A stretch of 64,000 nucleotides of DNA from an uncultured Verrucomicrobiae bacterium (GTDB taxonomy: Bacteria; Verrucomicrobiota; Verrucomicrobiia; Chthoniobacterales; UBA10450), in assembly GCA_963815455.1 (NCBI GenBank), contig CAWFGO010000002.1:640001-704000 (forward strand), read 5' to 3'. A program made the translations under genes and the position numbers. The notes below the pieces were generated by a model. That model had not been told where the DNA came from and made no database searches. It was given only the letters and a program-made list of their open reading frames with translations. Each line of letters opens with the position of its first letter. The stretch's first letter is position 1. Shown piece after piece: positions 7,841 to 59,155 of this stretch.

Positions 7841-10159
7841 TTATTGTTTCGACCTTCCCGGGCTGTTCGCTGCCGGCAAAGCCGTTCCGGACTTGGACTT
7901 GATCAACGCGATGTCCGAAGCGTTGATCGAACCATCTACGGTAACATCCGCCCGGAAATTAGTCCCGGTCACCGGAGTGCCTGATTGTGACTTACCCTGA
8001 CTAACGTCGGAGGAATTGACGACGCCGTTGGCCGTGGTGTCGCCGATGACAATGCTCATCGGGATCGCGAAATTAGTCGAACCATTCACGCCATTGAGCG
8101 TGATCTGAATGGTCTGGGCATTTGCTACATTTGTTAGCGGGATCGTCACAACGTTTCCGGCAATCGTGACCGTTCCGCCATCGCTGACGCCGCCGGTTCC
8201 GATTGAGCCGATGCCCGAAGTCACTGCGGCTTGCGGATTTCCGTTAACCGATACGTTGGCCATGAAAGTCAGGACGATTGTGTAATCACCGGTAGCGCCA
8301 CCGCTACGGCATTCTACTCCTGGTGTCCCACTCAACGGCAGGTTGATGTCGAAACTGCCCGCGCTCGCGTGCGTTTTTCGAGACACGACGCTCTGCGCAA
8401 TCGGCGTTGACGGTTGCGCACAGTAGTGTCCCCCGGTGTTCATTTCACCGCTGTCCGTTACGCCGCCCCAAACGATCATCTCAATGCCAGTCCAGATTGC
8501 TGTGGGAATGTTTCGGCCGCCAGGGGCGTTCACCGTCGTAGTTGGTATCCAACTGTCGCTGTCAGGACGGTATCGCCCACCGGTGTTGAAAAAATTGGTG
8601 GTGTCCTCGCCTCCCCAGATAATCATCTCGCTTCCAGACCATGCCGACACGTGACCGCTCCGCGGGGAGGGCGCGTTGTTTAGACTGGTAGCGGCCCAGC
8701 TGTCATTGACGGGGCTATATCTGCCCCCGGTGTTCGTGTCATTAAAGTTCTCGTCTACTCCACCCCAGACAAACATTTCATTCCCCGTCCACACCGCGCC
8801 GTGACCGACCCGTCCGAGCGGTGCGTTCGCCAGCGCCGTGGGTGTCCAGCTGTCGTTAGTGGGATTGTATCTGCCTCCGGTACACAAAAGATTCATTTGG
8901 TCGCTCCCACTCCAAACAATCATCTCTCCCCGGTCCCACACCGCACTGTGGCGGAAGCGTGCGACAGGTGCGTTGTTGATACTCGTGGGCGTCCAACTGT
9001 CGGTACCGGGATTGTATCGCCCGCCAGTGTTTAGCCTGCAGTTACCGTTGCACCCCAATCCACCCCATATGATCATCTGGCTTCCAGTCCAAACCGCAGT
9101 GTGATACTCCCGCGCCGCAGGGGCGTTGACCGCGCTGGTAGGGATCCAAGTGTCATTAGCTGGGTTGTATCTGCCACCCGTGTTTAACAACATGTTGTGG
9201 CTAAATCCCCCCCAAACAATCATTTCACTACCATTCCACGCCGCGCTTTGATTCGATCGGTCGCTGGGCACGTTAGTAAGACTCGTCGGTGTCCAGCTAT
9301 CCGTGCTCGGATAGTATCTGGCGCCGGTGTTCAAAGTCACGGGATTCGAAGAAAAATTCCACCCTCCCCATATGATCATTTCGGTTCCGGTCCATACAGC
9401 TGTGTGAAATTGTCTTGCTTCCGGCGCATTCATTGTAGAAGTAGCAGTCCAAATATCGTCGCAGTCGGGCGGAGTTGCGATTTCCGGTAGCCTATAGGCG
9501 GCAACGCCCAAATTTGTCGCTGAGGGAATGCGGTTCTCTGTGGACGCAGCTGTGCCGGCTGCAAACAGTTTCTTCGACGCAGGCCACACGCCTGCCGCTA
9601 CAGGATTGCTATCATTTGTCAGATCGGCGACCAACCGCTCCGCCAAGATCGGCATGGCCAGGCATTCCGCAATCACGAAGGGATCGTTACCGAACGCCGC
9701 AAAGAGTTCGCGCAAGACTTCGGGCTGCCTCGTGTGAGTCGCGATTCGATCCATCTCGGCTTGAAGCTCGCCTGCAGTAATTGGCTGTCCTCGTTGATCT
9801 GCGACCTGCTGTGATTTTCTAAGATAGTCCTCAACTTTTTTTTCGATTTCGCGTCGGGACACAACTGCGTCCAATGAAGGCTTTGCCACTGCATTCTCCT
9901 CTGGCCAAATCCGGTGCCGCCAACACACTTCTTCGATCGCATATTGGTAGGCCACTCGCTCGGCAAGAGTCAGCGCCGTATCGAACCTCTCTGCGGTTTG
10001 GCTGCGTGAGACAGCGTCTAGCGTTCCTAGTCCGGCGAGGTAACCGATGCCCACGACCAGACGAAAAAGAGTCACAACGCGCCTAGCGGAATAGGGGCGC
10101 TGTGAGCTGTTTGGAAATCTCCTCATCGCTTGTACCACTAAAGCGAGTTTTACCCTCAA
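7841..10159 (-). CDS. Kelch-like beta-propeller protein with C-terminal Ig-like plus dockerin-like module
   Basis: Seven repeats of R.xHxAVWTGxEMIxWGG...NTGGRYNP; twin GDxxxNGxVNxSD / ADVxxDGxINxSD loops. Confidence 0.8.
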   Translation of the reverse strand: MRVKLALVVQAMRRFPNSSQRPYSARRVVTLFRLVVGIGYLAGLGTLDAVSRSQTAERFDTALTLAERVAYQYAIEEVCWRHRIWPEENAVAKPSLDAVVSRREIEKKVEDYLRKSQQVADQRGQPITAGELQAEMDRIATHTRQPEVLRELFAAFGNDPFVIAECLAMPILAERLVADLTNDSNPVAAGVWPASKKLFAAGTAASTENRIPSATNLGVAAYRLPEIATPPDCDDIWTATSTMNAPEARQFHTAVWTGTEMIIWGGWNFSSNPVTLNTGARYYPSTDSWTPTSLTNVPSDRSNQSAAWNGSEMIVWGGFSHNMLLNTGGRYNPANDTWIPTSAVNAPAAREYHTAVWTGSQMIIWGGLGCNGNCRLNTGGRYNPGTDSWTPTSINNAPVARFRHSAVWDRGEMIVWSGSDQMNLLCTGGRYNPTNDSWTPTALANAPLGRVGHGAVWTGNEMFVWGGVDENFNDTNTGGRYSPVNDSWAATSLNNAPSPRSGHVSAWSGSEMIIWGGEDTTNFFNTGGRYRPDSDSWIPTTTVNAPGGRNIPTAIWTGIEMIVWGGVTDSGEMNTGGHYCAQPSTPIAQSVVSRKTHASAGSFDINLPLSGTPGVECRSGGATGDYTIVLTFMANVSVNGNPQAAVTSGIGSIGTGGVSDGGTVTIAGNVVTIPLTNVANAQTIQITLNGVNGSTNFAIPMSIVIGDTTANGVVNSSDVSQGKSQSGTPVTGTNFRADVTVDGSINASDIALIKSKSGTALPAANSPGRSKQ
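9538..9603. repeat. GTGG/GTAG REP doublet translated inside the Kelch protein
   Basis: CTGTGGACGCAGCTGTGCCGGCTGC...GCAGGCCACACGCCTGCCGCTACAG; peptide PVAAGVWPASKKLFAAGTAASTE. Confidence 0.75.
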
Positions 10160-12702: not shown

Positions 12703-15086
12703 TTACGGCAATCCGTGCCCGATCATGGACTTGGTCAATGCGATGTCCGAACTGCTCATCGATCCATCGGCGCTGATGTCTTCGCGGAAATTTGCGTTTG
12801 TCACGGGCTGGCCGCCCTGCCCTTTCACGATCGCAACATCCGTTGCGTTAACCACCTTGTTTCCTGTGGCGTCGCCCTTCAACATATTCACACTCACCGC
12901 CGTGTCGGGCAGAACCTGCGAGAAGCCGTCGATCACGTTGCTCAAAGTAACAGCGATCTTCTGCACATCTGTCACTCCAGTTAAATGAATCGTCATCGTG
13001 TTGCCGTTGAAGGTGGGACTTCCCGCGACGCTGCCGATGCCGTTCGTCACGCTCGCGTTGCCACTCGCCGGCGGGTTACTAAATGTCACAGCAATGGTGT
13101 GATTCCCGTTGCCGTTCCGGCATTCCAGGCCGGGTTCGCCAGCCAACGGCAAATCGATATCGAAGTCGCCCGCACCTCCATGCGTCATCCGCGAGACCGC
13201 CGACATGAGTTGCAGCGGGTTACAAGGTGCCGGGCCCTGAATTCCAACGGTGATCGGGCTCCCGGTCTTGAAGAAGCCGATCGTCGCGTTCGTGCGCCTG
13301 CGGCGGACTGTTGGAATCGAAACGGAAATTGTACGTCGTGCCAAAACGAATCGCGTTCGCGTTCTGGTTCTGGGCAAAGGTCTCCGTGCTCCAGCTCAGG
13401 GCGTTGGAAGTTTGATTCGAGATCCAGGCCGCATTGCTAAAGCCGGCGTTTCCGAGCGTTCCATCGTTTGGGAATCCGGGATGATTCGGCGGCGCGTGAA
13501 AGCCGAGGTTGCTGACCGTAATTCCGCATCCCAACGGCAGACTGAAAGATTGGATCGAGCGATCAAGATTCTGATTATGAATCGCGTATTCATAATGCCA
13601 TACGCCGGCAGATGGGTTTGTTACCTTATAGACAACGAAAGCCCGGCCATCGATTCCCGGCTGCGGGTTCAATCGTCGCGCTGGTCGCCCCGGTCCAGGC
13701 ATCCGTCGCGGGCATCATTCGCACGGTGGCTCCGACTTGCGCGAAGGTGAAACTAGTCGTGCCGGTAACACTGTAGCGGCGATAGGACGCGTTGTTATAC
13801 ATGTTGCATTGCCCGGGATGGGCCTGGCACCAGGCATACTCATGCGGTGTGTCGTATTGGACCTCGGCGTAATAGGTCGCGCCCGGATTTAGCGTGGTAT
13901 TCAGGTCGCTCATTTCCACCAAAATCCTGTGCGACGTACCGGTGTGAGTGTGGCCCGCGTGGCTCTCTGGCCTGGGACTCGCCCCTGGAAATGCGCCGGT
14001 AAACGGATTGACCCATGCCCGCGAACCCATGGCGCCCACGTGATCCGTCTGGCTCGCGTTTTGACTCGCGGAGTAAGGATCGGAGCATCCCACTCCCAGA
14101 GTCGTTGAGTTTACTGCGGGAGTACACCCCAAGCTGCAGTCGTCATCCTGGTTTGCCCCAAACGTATGCTTCACCCACGACTGGCCAATTTGTTCGAAGC
14201 GATCATTGTTGCTCGGTCCGCCGCTCATTCGATAGAGATTTTGGCAAAAAACGGAATGGTCAGTGTTCGGCAGCTGAAAAAAATGCAATTCCTGGTCACC
14301 GTTGTTGCAGGAGGTCGTTCCAGTCCCCAGGCCGACCTGGGTTCCACTGCTGCCAAATTGCGCCAAACCCGACATGTCTCCCACGATAACATCAGGCCCT
14401 TGCACAAAGGCCGGCGCATTCGGCGAGCCGCCGCGTCTCGGGGGCATGATCGACGATCGGGCCGCACCGTTAACGAATGTGACGATCTCGATCGGATACA
14501 CTGTCGCATCGACAGATATTTCCCCGACGACCGCTCTTGCGTCCGCCGGACGTCCCATTTTGTTGGCCAGCTCTTCTGAAATCAGAAGTCGTCCGCCCTT
14601 GATCCTAAAAAAATGCGCGGCCGGATCGTAATCGTAGAGGTGTCCTTCAATGTTGAAATAGACGAAACCCGTTTTCCCGTCGCGGATAATCAGCTCGAAT
14701 GGCTCGCCCGGAGCGGTTTTTTCGATCACGAGCTGGTTCGAAGACGCAGTTAACGGCTCGGGAAGAATCGTGGAATTTCGCAACGCTATCGAGCCTGGAT
14801 CGGGGTCGCGAAAAACATGGTTGAAGACACGGATCGTGAAAAACGAATTCGGACCAATCTCAAAACGGACGGTGTTCCGTTTCGATTCTCCGGCCGCGGC
14901 CTCGCTCCCATTTAATCGACTCAAATCGAGATCGAGCGCGACGTGCCCGTCTCCAACGATCATTCTTTCCAGAGTTCCGGTCTGGCTTTCCGGGCTCGTC
15001 TCTGGCGATTGCCGCGCGGAATTTCCAGAGCTATCGCTCAATAGAAAAAGCAACGCGAACGTAAAAAAACAGAGTATTTTTTTCAT
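12703..15086 (-). CDS. Large secreted Cys/His-rich protein with C-terminal Ig-like plus dockerin-like module (frameshifted)
   Basis: Signal peptide MKKILCFF; joins ORFs 13626..15251, 13220..13702, 12703..13377. Confidence 0.7.
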
Positions 15087-15249
15087 GATGATCGCGGCTT
15101 CCCGACGTCTTGGATACGCCGAAGGATTGTATACAGATTGGGCCGAAAGTAGACTGTTTTTTTCATGGGCTAAAAGCGTTTCAATCGCGCTCGCCTCGAT
15201 CCGTCCACGTTGATTTGTCGAGCCACGGATGCTAGGTAGCCGCGCCGCC

Positions 15250-18063
15250 ATGGGCCAGAACTACAAGGACACGCTCAATCTGCCGCGCACGGATTTCCCG
15301 ATGAAGGCGAACCTTGCTTCGCGGGAGCCGGAATTGCTCAAAGCGTGGGAGGAAACAGGCCTCTATCGGCAAATTCAAGAGTCACGACAGGATCGAGAAC
15401 TGTTCGTTTTGCATGACGGCCCGCCCTTTGCCAACGGCGACGTCCACATGGGCACCGCGCTCAACAAGATTCTCAAGGATTTCGTGGTGAAATCGCAAAC
15501 CATGCTCGGCAAACGCGCGCCGTATGTGCCCGGCTGGGATTGTCACGGACTGCCCATCGAATTCAAAGTGGTCAAGGAATCACGCGACCTTTCGCCGCTC
15601 GAAGTCCGCAAAAAATCCGAGGCGTTTGCCCGCAAATATGTCGATATCCAGCGCGAGCAGTTCAAACGGCTCGGCGTTCTCGGCGATTGGGAGCACCCCT
15701 ACCTCACTCTCGATCCGAAATACGAAGCTGAGATTTTGCGCGCGTTCGCCGTGTTCGTCGAAAAGGACCTGGTTTATCAATCGCAGAAACCGGTGTTCTG
15801 GAGCACCGGCGCGCAGACCGCGCTGGCCGAGGCCGAGGTGGAATATCAAGAGCGCGATGACACGACTGTTTATGTGAAGTTTCCGATCGCCAGCAATTCT
15901 GTAAGGGAAGCTGACAGCTTCCCAGCCGGAACCAGCATCGCCATCTGGACAACAACGCCGTGGACGTTGCCGGCCAACCTCGCCATCGCTGTCGATCCTA
16001 AGGAAACCTATGTAATCCAAAAGTTTTCGCGCGATGGCGCTTCTGAGACGCTCCTGCTGGCCGAAAAACTCATCCCGCAATTCTGCGCCAATACCGGATT
16101 CGCGCCTCTCGGCAAACCGCTCGCATCGTTTCCCGGAGCGAAGATCGACAAGATCAAAGCGCGCCATCCTTTCTTGGATCGCGAAGCAATCGTGCTCACG
16201 GCGGATTTTGTCACGATGGATACTGGTACCGGCGCCGTGCACATCGCGCCCGGCCACGGCGAGGACGATTACAAACTCGGCCGCGCAAACAATCTGCCAA
16301 TCTTGTCTCCGGTGGACGATCACGGCCTGCTCACGGACGAAGCCGGTCTGCCGAATCTTACGGGCAAGTACGTGTTCGACGCCAACATCGACATCGTCAA
16401 TTTGTTGCGCGAACGCGGGATGCTGCTGGCCGCGCAAAAATTCCATCACTCTTATCCGTACTGCTGGCGCTCGAAGACGCCGATCATTTTTCGCAACGTC
16501 GAACAATTCTTCATCCGCATCGACGCGCTCCGCGAAAAAGCGCTCCAGGCCATTCATAAAGATGTGAAATGGATTCCGGCCTGGGGCGAGAACCGCATCG
16601 CCGGCACCGTCGAATCGCGGCCCGACTGGGTCATCTCGCGTCAGCGCAGTTGGGGCGTGCCCCTGCCGGTTTTCTATTCAGCCGAAGGCAAACCGATTCT
16701 CGACGCGAAAATCATTCGCAAACTGGCCGATCTCGTTGCCGAGAAAGGTTCAAACATCTGGTTCGAATTGAACGATGTCGATCTTGCTAAAAAGCTCGGG
16801 CTTCCCGACGGCACAACGAAACGCAACGACACCATCGACGTTTGGATCGATAGCGGCGTGTCGCATAAAGCGGTTTGCGCCCTTCATCCCGAACTGCGCG
16901 ATCCCGCCGATATGTATCTGGAAGCGACCGATCAACATCGCGGCTGGTTTCAATCCTCGCTCATGACCAGCATCGCGCTGAACAATCGCGCGCCTTACAA
17001 AACCTGCGTCACCCACGGGTTCGTTGTCGATGTGGATGGCAAGAAAATTTCCAAGTCGGGCACTTACGATAAACCGATGGATGCCGGTCATTTCGTGAAC
17101 AAACACGGCGCCGATCTGGTCCGGCTTTGGGCGAGCAGCATCAATTACACGGATGACGTCCCTTTCTCGGAAGAAATGTTCACCCGTCTCGGCGATACCT
17201 ATCGCCGGATTCGCAACACGCTGCGGATTTTGCTGGGCAATCTTTTTGATTTCCCTGTAGCCGCGGTCGCTGACCGCGGCCCGGGGTCAACGACCCCGGC
17301 TACAACATTAGTCGATCGCTGGATCCTGGAGCGGCTCGATGAAGTGATCCGCGATTGTCGAACCGCCTACGAGTCGTTCGAGTTTCACAAGGTTTATCAC
17401 ACGCTCAATCAATTTTGCGCAGTCGATTTGAGCAGCCTCTACATCGACATCACCAAGGACCGGATGTATTGCGATGCGCCGGATTCTCCCCGTCGCCGGG
17501 CCACGCAGGCGGTCATGCGCGAAGTTTTCGACGCGCTTTGCAAATTGCTTGCCCCCGTTGTGGCCTTCACCGCCGAGGAAGCCTGGCGACATTTCGCTGT
17601 AGCCGCGGTCGCTGACCGCGGTCCGGCGTCAACGACCCCGGCTACAACATCGATCCACCTCGAAGAATTTCCGGGGCAAAGTGGCATGGGCTTCCAGCCC
17701 ATGTCCCCTCGGCAGGATGCCGATGCCACCAGTCAAGTCGGCGAACTGTTGAAGCTGCGCGGCGTAATCGGCCAGGCGATCGAGAAAGCGCGCCAGGAAA
17801 AACTCATTGGGAACGCGCTGGAGGCCGCTGTTACTTTGAATTCAAACTCCGATGTAACAGCAAAAATCGACAAGGCCGAGCTGGAAGAATTTTTTATCCT
17901 CAGCGATCTCACGATTGAGCAGGCGACGGAAGCGAGCGCATCCGTCACAAAAACAGCGCACAAGAAATGCGCCCGTTGCTGGCGTCACCGCGAATACGTC
18001 GGCAAAAGCAAGGCGCATCCGGAATTGTGCGACCGGTGCGAACAAGTAGTGAACGCGCGTTAG
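15250..18063 (+). CDS. ileS: Isoleucine--tRNA ligase (type 1)
   Basis: HDGPPFANG, HMGT (HIGH), WTTTPWT, KISKS, C-terminal CARC...CDRC zinc finger; followed by lspA. Confidence 0.98.
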   Translation: MGQNYKDTLNLPRTDFPMKANLASREPELLKAWEETGLYRQIQESRQDRELFVLHDGPPFANGDVHMGTALNKILKDFVVKSQTMLGKRAPYVPGWDCHGLPIEFKVVKESRDLSPLEVRKKSEAFARKYVDIQREQFKRLGVLGDWEHPYLTLDPKYEAEILRAFAVFVEKDLVYQSQKPVFWSTGAQTALAEAEVEYQERDDTTVYVKFPIASNSVREADSFPAGTSIAIWTTTPWTLPANLAIAVDPKETYVIQKFSRDGASETLLLAEKLIPQFCANTGFAPLGKPLASFPGAKIDKIKARHPFLDREAIVLTADFVTMDTGTGAVHIAPGHGEDDYKLGRANNLPILSPVDDHGLLTDEAGLPNLTGKYVFDANIDIVNLLRERGMLLAAQKFHHSYPYCWRSKTPIIFRNVEQFFIRIDALREKALQAIHKDVKWIPAWGENRIAGTVESRPDWVISRQRSWGVPLPVFYSAEGKPILDAKIIRKLADLVAEKGSNIWFELNDVDLAKKLGLPDGTTKRNDTIDVWIDSGVSHKAVCALHPELRDPADMYLEATDQHRGWFQSSLMTSIALNNRAPYKTCVTHGFVVDVDGKKISKSGTYDKPMDAGHFVNKHGADLVRLWASSINYTDDVPFSEEMFTRLGDTYRRIRNTLRILLGNLFDFPVAAVADRGPGSTTPATTLVDRWILERLDEVIRDCRTAYESFEFHKVYHTLNQFCAVDLSSLYIDITKDRMYCDAPDSPRRRATQAVMREVFDALCKLLAPVVAFTAEEAWRHFAVAAVADRGPASTTPATTSIHLEEFPGQSGMGFQPMSPRQDADATSQVGELLKLRGVIGQAIEKARQEKLIGNALEAAVTLNSNSDVTAKIDKAELEEFFILSDLTIEQATEASASVTKTAHKKCARCWRHREYVGKSKAHPELCDRCEQVVNAR
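15900..15923 (+). repeat. GTAA-hairpin REP inside ileS
   Basis: TGTAA-GGGAAGCTG-A-CAGCTTCCC; peptide SVREADSFP. Confidence 0.7.
17255..17307 (+). repeat. GTAG REP doublet inside ileS, copy 1
   Basis: CTGTAGCCGCGGTCGCTGACCGCGGCCCGGGGTCAACGACCCCGGCTACAACA; peptide VAAVADRGPGSTTPATT. Confidence 0.9.
17597..17649 (+). repeat. GTAG REP doublet inside ileS, copy 2
   Basis: 51/53 nt identical to copy 1; peptide VAAVADRGPASTTPATT. Confidence 0.9.
17681..17729 (+). repeat. GTGG REP doublet inside ileS
   Basis: GTGGCATGGGCTTCCAGCCCATG...GGCAGGATGCCGATGCCAC; peptide SGMGFQPMSPRQDADAT. Confidence 0.8.
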
Positions 18064-18064
18064 C

Positions 18065-18148
18065 CGTCATGTCGAGCGAAGTCGAGACATCCCGCGGCGC
18101 TACCATTCAGTGTTGCAACGGGATTCCTCGGCTTCGCTCGGAATGACA
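18065..18148. repeat. Inverted pair of CGTC/TGTC-type REPs between ileS and lspA
   Basis: CGTCATGTCGAGCGAAGTCGAGACATCCC...GGGATTCCTCGGCTTCGCTCGGAATGACA. Confidence 0.85.
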
Positions 18149-18153
18149 AGATT

Positions 18154-18660
18154 ATGAAATTCATCTTCTGCCTTTCTCTGCCGCTCTACCTGCTGGATCA
18201 ATGGACGAAACAGCTCGTTCTACGACACATCACCGAGCCATACGATGTCGGAGAGCAATTGATTCATTTGAAGAATTTTTTTCATTTGGTGAATGTGACC
18301 AACACCGGCGCGGCGTTCGGCTCGTTTAAGGATAACAACGCGTTCTTCGTGGCGATCTCCTGCATCGCGATGCTCTTTGTCTTGATTCTCCTCCTCCGGC
18401 GCGGGACGCCCGACACCTGGCGCGACGTCTCGCTGGCCCTGCTCCTGGCCGGGATCCTGGGCAATCTGACCGATCGCCTTCTTTACGGACACGTAATCGA
18501 CTTTCTCCTTTTCGATTTCGGTCCAAACGCGCCGAAACTGTTTGCTCCCTGGCCGGCATTTAACGTGGCCGATTCCTGCATCACCATCGCCGTGATTTGC
18601 TTCATCATTCATTCCTTCTGGGAGGGCAAGAGAAGAGAGCAGCCGGCGCAGCAGCCGTAG
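18154..18660 (+). CDS. lspA: Lipoprotein signal peptidase II
   Basis: DQWTK, NTGAAFG, GNLTDR, VIDF, FNVAD. Confidence 0.97.
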   Translation: MKFIFCLSLPLYLLDQWTKQLVLRHITEPYDVGEQLIHLKNFFHLVNVTNTGAAFGSFKDNNAFFVAISCIAMLFVLILLLRRGTPDTWRDVSLALLLAGILGNLTDRLLYGHVIDFLLFDFGPNAPKLFAPWPAFNVADSCITIAVICFIIHSFWEGKRREQPAQQP

Positions 18661-18720
18661 CCGCAGTTCGAACGCCTCTAACAGGTCGCGCGTTGCGCTT
18701 CGCACAGCGAAGCGGCTACA
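18657..18720. repeat. GTAG...CTAC inverted REP-like element overlapping the lspA stop
   Basis: GTAGCCGC...GCGGCTAC termini. Confidence 0.6.
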
Positions 18721-18813
18721 GTGGCTTCCGGAAGTCCTTCGGGTTTTGATCCTTTGCCCACTGTCCGTCAAATCGATGCAACCCTAGATAGACTCCTTCT
18801 ATCCCAAAGGTCC

Positions 18814-19239
18814 CTATTCAGCTGGGCAAACCAACAACACGGAATTACTTCGCAAATGAGGCGGTGGTCCAATTTGGACGTAAACCTCAAGGAGATCGCC
18901 TGGTTGCGCGTAAATGTCGGGCGTAATCCTCTTCCATTCCACGCTGTTCGGTGTCAGAAAGTGGTTTGCAGGCGCACTGGTGCTTGTTTTGCCCTGAATC
19001 TCTACCGGAGCGGGCGAATTTTTGCCGGAGAGTTTTTTCGAAGACGAAATCGTGGAGATGAACTCCAGCGAGGGCACCTTTGCCCTTCGAGGACCAATGT
19101 TACAAACGTAAACATCAAAGCTGATCTTGGAATGCGGCTTTACTGTGGTCTCGACTGGAATTAAGAGCAGACGGGGCTCTTGCGCTTGGACTGCCGCCAA
19201 GATAAGGATTTGCGAGAGTATGATTAGGACAATCTTCAT
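18814..19239 (-). CDS. Small exported protein, putative Rhs immunity protein
   Basis: Signal peptide, lower GC, 37 nt downstream of the Rhs toxin ORF. Confidence 0.55.
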   Translation of the reverse strand: MKIVLIILSQILILAAVQAQEPRLLLIPVETTVKPHSKISFDVYVCNIGPRRAKVPSLEFISTISSSKKLSGKNSPAPVEIQGKTSTSAPANHFLTPNSVEWKRITPDIYAQPGDLLEVYVQIGPPPHLRSNSVLLVCPAE

Positions 19240-57274: not shown

Positions 57275-58491
57275 TGCGGATCGTTGTCTGGGGAATTAAT
57301 TACGCGCCCGAGATCACCGGGATCGCGCCGCACAATGTCGCGCTTTGCGAGTTTTTGCGCGGACACGCCGTCGAAGTCGAGATGGTGACGACGTTCGCCT
57401 ACTACCCGGCCTGGCGAAAACGCGACGAAGATCGACATCGGCTTTATCGCACGGATGTAATCAACGGCGTGCCGGTTCACCGTTGCTGGCATTTTGTCCC
57501 GCGAGCGGTTTCTGCCTGGAAACGGATCATACACGAAGGCACATTCATCGTTACATCGACCTTGTGCATCCTGTCGCTCGACCGAGCCGATGTTTATGTT
57601 GTCGCTTCGCCGCCTCTGCTTCTCGGCGCAGCGGCGTGGTTCGTCACCAGATTCAAGCGCGCGCCATTTGTCTTTCATGTCCAGGATTTGCAACCGGACG
57701 CGGCCGTCGGTCTCGGAATGCTTAAAGCGGGCTGGTTCACCCGAGCGCTTTATTGGCTCGAGGCCCTTGCCTACAAAAAAGCGACGCGCGTTTCCGGGAT
57801 CAGCGAAGAGATTGTCGATGCTTTCCGGCGCAAAGGCGTGCCGGAAGAAAAGTTGATCTTGTTTCCAAATGGGGTCGCGATTCCAAAAGAATTTCCACCG
57901 CGAGGCAGATTCCGCGAGAAACAGGGGTTCGCTTCCGATGAGTTTCTCGCGATTTACGCCGGCAATCTTGGAGTCAAACAAGGACTGGAAATTCTACTCG
58001 ATGCCGCCGAACAATTTCAGAACGATCGAATCCGCATTGTGCTGTGTGGCGACGGCGCCGCCCGCCCGGCGCTGGAGAAAAACCTGGAGGATCGACATCT
58101 CACCAATGTGACGATGCTGCCGCTGCACTTTGGCCGGGATTATCAGGAATTGCTCGTGGATGCGGACGTCTCGCTCATCACGCAACAAAGCGGCTCAGGG
58201 AACGCATTTTTTCCCAGCAAACTTCTGGTCACGCTCGCCCATTCGAGTCCGGTTGTTACCGTGGCCGACGAGGAAAGCGCGCTGGCTCGTGCTGTCGAGC
58301 AAGGCGGATTTGGCCGAAATGTCCTTCCCGGTAAGCCCGGAGAGTTGGCGAAAGCCTTAAGCGACCTGGCCCAGGATCGACAACGGTTGCGCGACTGGGG
58401 CCAGGCCGGCCGCGTTTATGTCGAACGGTTCGAGCAAAAGCGATTGCACGAACAGTTCGCGAAAGAGATTGAAGCGCTGGCCCGAGGATGA
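57274..58491 (+). CDS. wcaI: WcaI-like GT4 glycosyltransferase
   Basis: GINYAPEITGI, YYPAW, HVQDLQPDAA, GNLGVKQG, PSKL. Confidence 0.88.
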   Translation: MRIVVWGINYAPEITGIAPHNVALCEFLRGHAVEVEMVTTFAYYPAWRKRDEDRHRLYRTDVINGVPVHRCWHFVPRAVSAWKRIIHEGTFIVTSTLCILSLDRADVYVVASPPLLLGAAAWFVTRFKRAPFVFHVQDLQPDAAVGLGMLKAGWFTRALYWLEALAYKKATRVSGISEEIVDAFRRKGVPEEKLILFPNGVAIPKEFPPRGRFREKQGFASDEFLAIYAGNLGVKQGLEILLDAAEQFQNDRIRIVLCGDGAARPALEKNLEDRHLTNVTMLPLHFGRDYQELLVDADVSLITQQSGSGNAFFPSKLLVTLAHSSPVVTVADEESALARAVEQGGFGRNVLPGKPGELAKALSDLAQDRQRLRDWGQAGRVYVERFEQKRLHEQFAKEIEALARG

Positions 58492-58577
58492 GGTGGATCG
58501 GTCGCTCCGCGAGCGATGGTAAGACGAATTGCGCTTGGCGCCACTATATCATCGCCCGCGGAGCGGCCGATCCACCT
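58491..58577. repeat. Inverted GTGG-REP pair 5' of RAYT
   Basis: AGGTGGATCGGTCGCTCCGCGAGCGATG (58491-58518) and inverted copy (58550-58577). Confidence 0.92.
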
Positions 58578-58610
58578 TGCCATTTTCACGGCACGTTTGC
58601 ACGATCGCGC

Positions 58611-59072
58611 GTGCCATATCGCGGATTTCCAGCCAAGCTGCATCATGAGGTTCCGGGCTGGGTCGAGTCCGGTGCAATATTTCATATTCGCATGGCTCTC
58701 GATCATGAGAAAAAACAGCGATCGCTCGTTGCGCCCTCTCTGGCAGCGGCGTTACTCGATTCCGCGCGATTCTATGAATCGAAGGGACGTTGGTACATCA
58801 CGATCTTCATGCTAATGCCAGATCACATTCACGCACTTCTGTCCTTCAGAAGCGATCAGGCAATGAGTCGCATAATTGGCGATTGGAAGCATTTTCACGC
58901 AGCCAACAACTCAGTGAAATGGCAGGAAGGATATTTCGATCATCGCTTGCGTGATGACGAGCGGGGCGAACAGCTCTCTGCGAAAATCGAATATATTCGC
59001 CAAAATCCGGTAGCCGCCAGATTGTGCGCAAGGACTGACGATTGGCCGTGGAGGATTGACCCGTTCGCATAG
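58611..59072 (+). mobile_element. REP-associated tyrosine transposase (RAYT, HUH/Y1)
   Basis: MPDHIH, WQEGYFDH, YIRQNPV; flanked by four REPs; start estimated at GTG 58611. Confidence 0.93.
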
Positions 59073-59155
59073 GTGGATCGGTCGCTCCGCGGGCGATGAC
59101 AAAAGATCGGCTCCGCCGCCAAAGTAGCATCGAGCGACGGAGCGCTCGATCCACC
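59071..59155. repeat. Inverted GTGG-REP pair 3' of RAYT
   Basis: AGGTGGATCGGTCGCTCCGCGGGCGATG (59071-59098) and degenerate inverted copy (59128-59155). Confidence 0.9.

Follow-up and report, generated by a model that had tools for sequence, protein, structure and literature searches.

REP-derived segments replace native codons in predicted surface loops of an isoleucyl-tRNA synthetase from Chthoniobacterales

Introduction

The gene ileS, which encodes the type 1 isoleucyl-tRNA synthetase (IleRS) of an uncultured Verrucomicrobiae bacterium, lies at positions 15250..18063 on the forward strand of the window studied here (64,000 nt of contig CAWFGO010000002.1; positions are those of the window unless another contig is named), and carries four in-frame segments, S1 to S4, that by their sequence are repetitive extragenic palindromic elements (REPs) of three families dispersed through the genome. 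Comparison with a sister genome indicates that these segments replace native codons and are not pure insertions, and in a structural model all four occupy predicted surface loops; coding REPs are unusually dense in this essential gene. Among related genomes, alignments suggest that the loop holding S2 has likely been overwritten repeatedly by different types of repeat, and the type that it contains tends to follow the repeat load of the genome in question. It is probable, in our view, that REPs were pasted by REP-associated tyrosine transposases (RAYTs, of the HUH type) into tolerant loops, with loss of native codons, that the results were filtered by reading frame, and that the survivors are close to neutral.

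The ileS gene and its four repeat segments

The open reading frame that contains ileS extends from 15229 to 18063, with a likely start at the ATG at 15250 that yields a product of 937 residues. It matches TIGR00392 with 845 bits (cut-off 621) and is left uninterrupted by the four segments, as had been proposed in a first-pass annotation made from the letters of the window. A single full ileS match was found in the source genome (G000; 3.6 Mb, 90% complete), whose named relatives belong to the Chthoniobacterales/Spartobacteria and include Candidatus Udaeobacter. The motifs of type 1 IleRS are present, namely HMGT (HIGH-like), KISKS (KMSKS-like), the editing motif WTTTPWT, GTGAVHIAPGHGEDD, and a C-terminal CARC...CDRC zinc motif, and the catalytic, editing and zinc motifs are the same as those of the family: KISKS is shared by 109 of 111 orthologues, G000 among them, and HMGT, here at 15445-15456, by all 111 compared. 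The titles of PDB entries 8c8w and 8c9f tie altered HIGH motifs to mupirocin resistance.

All four segments are read on the forward strand. S1 (15900-15923, residues 218-225) is a single 8-bp hairpin tagged GTAA that encodes the peptide VREADSFP. S2 (17256-17304, residues 670-685) and S3 (17598-17646, residues 784-799) are GTAG...CTAC doublets of one family, encoding VAAVADRGPGSTTPAT and VAAVADRGPASTTPAT, respectively, and S4 (17681-17729, residues 811-827) is a GTGG...CCAC doublet whose peptide, SGMGFQPMSPRQDADAT, has a near-identical counterpart in leuS of the same genome. Each segment encodes just 8-17 residues, the total of REP-coded residues being 57, or 6% of the protein; the segments are presumably translated as peptide loops, with predicted junction peptides such as LFDFPVAAVADR. 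The two near-identical doublets, described earlier as lying 342 nt apart in the same frame, are confirmed as such: S2 and S3 are alike at all but 2 of 50 nt, and each is the nearest copy of the other in the genome (alignment score 46, next 36, among 114 candidates). A count of four families was rejected, since the GTAA hairpin of S1 is a variant of a GTAG family (12 exact GTAG copies and 1 GTAA copy of that form), which leaves three families. The dinucleotide CT stands before the tag in S1, S2 and S3. An Rfam search of 14500-19000 returned three matches, all under their gathering scores and none at S1-S4.

The frames used in ileS can be accounted for by stop codons that close the others: of the three forward-strand frames, only one is free of stops in each of S1, S2 and S3, and all three are in S4. 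Across the genome, the S2 family has 19 tag-first coding units, all 19 of them in its single open frame, and the coding units of the stop-free GTGG family are spread over the three frames (6/5/6). Such usage would be what purifying selection leaves of blind events.

The structure of IleRS was modelled with AlphaFold2 on the alignment of 111 orthologues (mean predicted local distance difference test score, pLDDT, 87; template modelling score, TM, 0.83 to PDB 8c9e), a single-sequence model with a pLDDT of 35 having been discarded. In this model, S1 falls between two strands in the editing domain, and S2-S4 belong to the C-terminal helical part, where they occupy loops of low confidence (pLDDT 56-59). 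The predicted loop of S1 lies between strands 197-213 and 228-234, ahead of the WTTTPWT motif; that of S2 lies between helices 642-664 and 687-708, and that of S4 precedes helix 820-849.

Repeat families and RAYT genes in the source genome

A search of the 3.6-Mb genome with five short motifs, allowing up to 3 mismatches, returned 228 units forming 165 elements, both singles and inverted dimers; the reversed genome, used as control, gave 0. The derivation of the segments from REPs is thus upheld: they have other genomic copies, and they do not align with conserved, palindrome-free IleS sequence. Genes were called with a simple in-house procedure (3509 genes, 85% coding), by which 56 of the 165 elements are internal to called genes, 25 are near gene ends and 84, about half of the total, are intergenic or overlap a gene end, which supplies the intergenic versus coding count that the first-pass annotation had called for. 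Coding copies are depleted yet common, given that 34% of elements are internal to genes, as compared to 54% of random positions under the same rule. The three ileS families are found in frame in 48 other called genes, 36 of which, including leuS, argS, alaS, dnaX, tsaD, mnmA, miaA, purL, mfd and ispG, have an NCBIfam match at E 1e-15. The suggestion that several REP families generate new peptide loops in core proteins is therefore sound with respect to the number of families and genes, but the loops were existing, variable ones that have been overwritten.

The genome contains 16 matches to Y1_Tnp and 19 RAYT-like places, and several pairs of RAYT and repeat coexist in it. By the repeats on their flanks, cognate RAYTs can be assigned to two of the three ileS families: one with the S2/S3 family on its flanks (C1:202084-202800) has an open frame, and one flanked by the S1 family (C1:863261-863695) has a frameshift near its end. 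The former itself holds two in-frame arms of the S2/S3 family, a REP providing its stop codon. RAYT (Y1_Tnp) domains are also found in frame inside alaS (C2:122846-126199; gene identity confirmed by family match), metH (C3:169636-174156), recG (C5:89932-92697) and carB (C1:1469339-1473118), the last three named from their sequences, with repeat-coded peptide on the flanks. Long fusion proteins were discarded from the analysis of Quentin 2018, as far as the part of that work consulted indicates. Within the window, a stand-alone RAYT at 58473-59099 lies between its own inverted repeats, of a family absent from ileS.

Repeats are also present in the vicinity of ileS. A GTAG doublet at 18657-18721, directly after lspA, provides the lspA stop codon, and the gap between ileS and lspA holds a long hairpin (18066-18147) of a different, very abundant repeat class (179 BLAST pieces); several relatives have repeats of this class at S2 or S3, read in frame, and the contig of one relative skips 18066-18147. 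A motif of 14-16 nt that lacks a REP-like tag is strongly over-represented in G000, and several relatives have it in their S4 loop.

Replacement of native codons and order of events

The sister genome G001, of the same genus, has an ileS that is 91% identical to that of G000 outside the loops, and provides a reference for each site. Relative to it, S1 comprises 13 codons in place of 7 (net gain of 6 residues), S2 17 codons in place of 11 (6 residues), and S4 19 codons in place of 10 (9 residues), while S3 has exchanged 11 native nt for 53 new ones (14 residues); the four sites together have gained 35 residues. The proposal that the segments are insertions in surface loops consequently stands in part: they lie in predicted loops that are longer than in orthologues, but they are replacements in which native codons have been lost. 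Pure insertion was rejected since native codons are missing at every site. Miniature inverted-repeat transposable elements are defined by clean insertion with a target-site duplication, and membership in this class was likewise rejected, native bases having been lost at all four sites with respect to G001 and no duplication being seen at S3.

The likely order of events is that S1 and S2 came first and S3 and S4 later, an order graded as no more than likely because the contigs that bear on it are short and perhaps come from different relatives. Soil contigs that are 92-94% like the window (three runs, one study) cover S2 without gaps, and two contigs cover S1. In contigs that are about 90% alike, 17594/17596 is joined to 17734/17737 across S3 and S4, one of them having 71 nt for 140, a difference that corresponds to 23 codons gained at S3 plus S4. 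Among the public contigs listed, none bears S3 or S4 with ileS flanks. S3 is likely a young local copy of S2, and its status as the derived copy fits with the fact that both of its differences from S2 weaken the S3 hairpins.

Turnover of the S2 loop across related genomes

A set of 127 ileS loci was reduced, by dropping 16 partial ones, to an alignment of 111 rows, of which 102 are from the family and 9 are order-level; six further loci (L014, L018, L024, L028-L030) stand outside the alignment, and one of the 102 family genomes is without the S2 anchor, giving n=101 for that site. Family S2 loops match at least three places in G000 in 53 of 101 cases, the corresponding figures being 5 of 303 for control windows and 2 of 9 for order-level loops. 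Unsupervised clustering places 77 loops in 11 groups, and the resulting types are approximate both on account of that procedure and because 24 of the 101 loops are unclustered, some of these resembling decayed repeats. The largest groups consist of a purine-rich tandem repeat (25+4 genomes), the S2 family (19 genomes in 9 genera), a second GTAG family (9 genomes in 7 genera) and a long hairpin class (4). The purine-rich repeat, short and non-palindromic, is found at 13 places in G000, 12 of them intergenic, with 0 in the control. The commonest S2 allele is probably repeat-derived, since this repeat encodes the SGKQESRK-like loop present in about 29 relatives. On a tree built without the loops, the S2 type changes 33 times (shuffles, 40-51), or 29 times if the two purine groups are merged (77 typed rows), and the S2 family by itself accounts for 11 changes.

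The other sites are filled less often, genome repeats being present at S1 in 7, at S3 in 7 and at S4 in 11 of the 102 family genomes, and at all four only in G000. The S1 repeat family fills S1 in 5 other family genomes of the 102, and 85 of 102 retain a short S3 loop. The S2 family is found at S3 in G079, G103 and G127, and a further 66 ileS loci, 41 of them new, include four more such cases (L207, L247, L249, L251).

The tendency of the S2 type to follow each genome's own repeat load was assessed with a proxy, the count of first-look candidates for a family, for which 10 genomes with no match were set to 5 and G014 was dropped. Carriers of the S2 family have a median load of 34, versus 9 in others, and high load (at least 19) is found in 16 of 18 carriers versus 23 of 81 others. 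For the second GTAG family, high load is found in 7 of 8 carriers versus 13 of 91 others, and its carriers have a median load of 72.5 of their own family and 8.5 of the S2 family. The two loads are uncorrelated (rho 0.11). Matches were present in 107 of 141 and 136 of 141 genomes for the two counts; these tallies include G008, G130 and G150, flagged as unpublished, on which no other claim is built.

Origin of the segments

The tag of a REP guides the enzyme TnpA-REP, which cleaves single-stranded DNA at a CT close to the REP and also joins strands (PMC8266576). By analogy, RAYTs may act on these REPs in these cells: a RAYT would cut single-stranded DNA at the CT near a REP and rejoin it elsewhere, and two cuts at different places would, as proposed here, result in insertion plus deletion. 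In an essential gene, the survivors would be those events that kept the frame, avoided the stop codons of the repeat and left the next helix intact, and a loop already bearing a repeat, such as S2, might have it overwritten in turn by a repeat of the family that abounds in the genome concerned. S1 and S2 would then be older, with S3 copied recently and locally from S2 and S4 newly arrived. The segments are probably without effect on the enzyme. A broader idea, which we advance tentatively and with somewhat more doubt than confidence, is that in Chthoniobacterales certain loops of essential proteins serve as standing landing pads that are rewritten in place by RAYT-type enzymes, the dominant repeat overwriting its predecessor. 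If this were true, the loop sequence of an essential enzyme would be set by the population of mobile repeats and not by descent, and the S2 loop of ileS, which has switched at least 29 times among repeats with and without hairpins, would constitute a dated record of REP movement in vivo.

Several observations weigh against pasting by RAYTs. The RAYT of the S1 family is frameshifted near its end, which may be a sequencing error, and no unit of the GTGG family (S4) lies within 400 nt of any of the 19 RAYT-like places (genome 90% complete); REP families without REPtrons exist (PMC3733652, consulted in part). Apart from S3, the best full-length matches to S2 are in other genomes (96-98%), not in G000, and S1 alleles dispersed across genera that form no clade have a common, non-repeat right junction, which points to recombination as well. 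The association with load relies on a mere first-look count with thresholds picked after viewing the data, and upon strict correction for the tree it loses significance, leaving, for the S2 family, 9 independent pairs (same direction 4.2, opposite 0; median p 0.125) and, for the second family, 5 (same direction 0.9, opposite 0; p 1).

The junction at S1 leads to the alternative that there were a few old, single insertions and that loop types then spread between species mainly via homologous recombination of ileS segments, which we consider unlikely as a general account. The S1 repeat followed by a P-x-G/N-T tail is shared by G000, G011, G033, G034, G039 and G073, and the sister of G000 has a short native loop; since six genomes with the same repeat and the same non-repeat tail form no clade, recombination probably moved or removed this allele, and a non-repeat S1 variant is likewise scattered over genera. 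On the ileS tree, genus labels require 23 changes for 23 genera, indicating little transfer of the whole gene, with short swaps still possible. At S2, however, genomes of the same type do not have flanking silent sites in common (residuals of -0.049 to +0.021 in adjacent 30-codon windows), and only 1 of 16 silent-site flank tests reached p 0.012, in a non-adjacent window; little weight can be placed on this test, given that silent sites are close to saturated and that the control meant to be positive likewise showed nothing. Moreover, S2 alleles of one family vary in arms, spacers and junctions, the S2 type follows host load, and the swapping of alleles cannot account for S3 as a copy of S2.

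The in-frame RAYT domains of alaS, metH, recG and carB, together with the REPtron end-to-end geometry of the doublets, evoke the question of whether the doublets were left behind by whole REP-RAYT-REP cassettes, formerly in frame in ileS, that lost their transposase. This is improbable: RAYT-like sequence is present in 0 of 127 ileS loci and 0 of 66 further loci (the sets partly overlap), the ileS families flank none of the four in-frame cassettes, and compact doublets are frequent elsewhere in the genome. Retention of the inserts for a function, be it at the level of mRNA, with hairpins that set the pace of translation or shield the transcript, or as partner-binding peptide loops, would agree with the filling of S2 by repeats in about half the family and with the 19 of 19 S2-family alleles that end, by eye, in the Ala-Thr frame before the conserved helix, as compared to 14 of 24 such units genome-wide. 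Preservation of the helix cap explains that preference equally well, no sequence is common to the S2 peptides of different genomes, which comprise plain loops and purine repeats that form no hairpin, S3 has weaker hairpins owing to its two differences, and most genomes make do with the short S3 loop, so that a function is, if anything, slightly more improbable still. As for the S2/S3 pair or the entire cluster being an assembly artefact, errors of the indel type do occur in this assembly, as valS (G000 C3:456000-459200) is broken up into three frames and a single frameshift is present in each of two RAYT genes; since these are likely sequencing indels, gene calls in G000 need care, and the public contigs listed do not bridge S3 or S4. 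Nevertheless, S3 has its 2 differences from S2, replaces exactly 11 nt and preserves the frame, independent contigs have S1 and S2 in place, the S2 family fills S3 in other genomes too, and S4 is of a different family, all of which makes an artefact extremely unlikely.

Significance

As a single-copy essential gene that offers filled as well as empty alleles at four alignable sites in more than 100 genomes, ileS yields exact before/after junctions. In vivo REP spread is still called poorly understood (PMC8266576), and models of it must explain what the ileS junctions display, namely that insertion goes together with deletion, that copying took place locally, over 342 nt, and that overwriting recurred. 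The case also illustrates the tolerance of a synthetase for foreign peptide amounting to 6% of the protein, suggests S2 and S3 as likely permissive sites for tags, and indicates that repeat-filled loops mislead phylogenies; it reveals no new enzyme function. Elsewhere in the window, at 8518-9331, five degenerate repeats with a spacing of about 147 nt probably belong to a repeat-domain protein.

Comparison with known systems

RPE-1, one of the Rickettsia palindromic elements (RPEs), is longer than the ileS segments. As in ileS, the RPEs (summarised in PMC3733652) are palindromic repeats lying in frame in conserved genes; they are, however, CGTC-tagged and belong to an intracellular alphaproteobacterium, whereas the ileS segments span 24-49 nt, are tagged GTAG or GTGG and have cognate RAYTs. 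The tags found here (GTAG, GTAA, GTGG) led to the rejection of RPE membership. Rickettsia, from which the first-pass annotation had held coding palindromic inserts to be best known, is not the closest precedent, since intragenic GTAG REPs are known in the Verrucomicrobium Opitutus terrae (PMC3733652), and the novelty implied for coding REPs must also be withdrawn, these having been published by Di Nocera et al. 2013.

The repeats resemble those of REPtrons and TnpA-REP in having a tetranucleotide tag with a hairpin, inverted doublets, a RAYT flanked by its cognate repeat, and CT by the tag (PMC8266576, in the part consulted). The model systems of REPtrons, bacterial interspersed mosaic elements and REPINs are mainly extragenic, whereas about one element in three is intragenic in G000, which has several RAYT-repeat pairs. 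In the literature covered, which included few subscription papers, we found no report of REPs repeatedly overwriting one protein loop or of the replacement geometry, nor any on these repeats in Chthoniobacterales.

Within the parts of PMC3733652 consulted, REP inserts are reported in tRNA synthetases of other species. IleRS itself is represented in Erythrobacter litoralis (ELI_13550), where an in-frame CGTC-1 REP dimer occupies residues 467-488; it differs from the present case in that it involves another repeat class, a single insert, and, by residue number and unaligned, another region of the protein. This is the sole match to 'isoleucyl' in the supplements seen, which hold no ileS entry for O. 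terrae. The only site common to several genomes in that source, as consulted, is in Xanthomonas recB.

The closest precedent is thus O. terrae, of the same phylum, in which intragenic GTAG REPs are most numerous, single genes sometimes carrying two of them (Di Nocera et al. 2013, PMC3733652), and which has 70 intragenic rows in supplement 3; its GTAG-17 repeats occur in frame as singles and dimers and hit many core genes, and a GTGG tag variant is also reported. By eye, GTAG-17 peptides are near-identical to those of S2 and S3 (VAGVADPGPGSTSPA; Oter_4627 ends in VAAVADRGPGSTSPA), and Oter_3711 contains two near-identical dimers in one gene, like S2 and S3 in ileS. Given this near-identity, both the phenomenon and probably the repeat family were already known. 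The O. terrae cases, as described in the portion seen, come from a single genome and carry no account of codon replacement, of four sites per gene or of overwriting throughout a family; coding REPs as such being known, what is added here is the comparative record of the repeated rewriting of the S2 loop.

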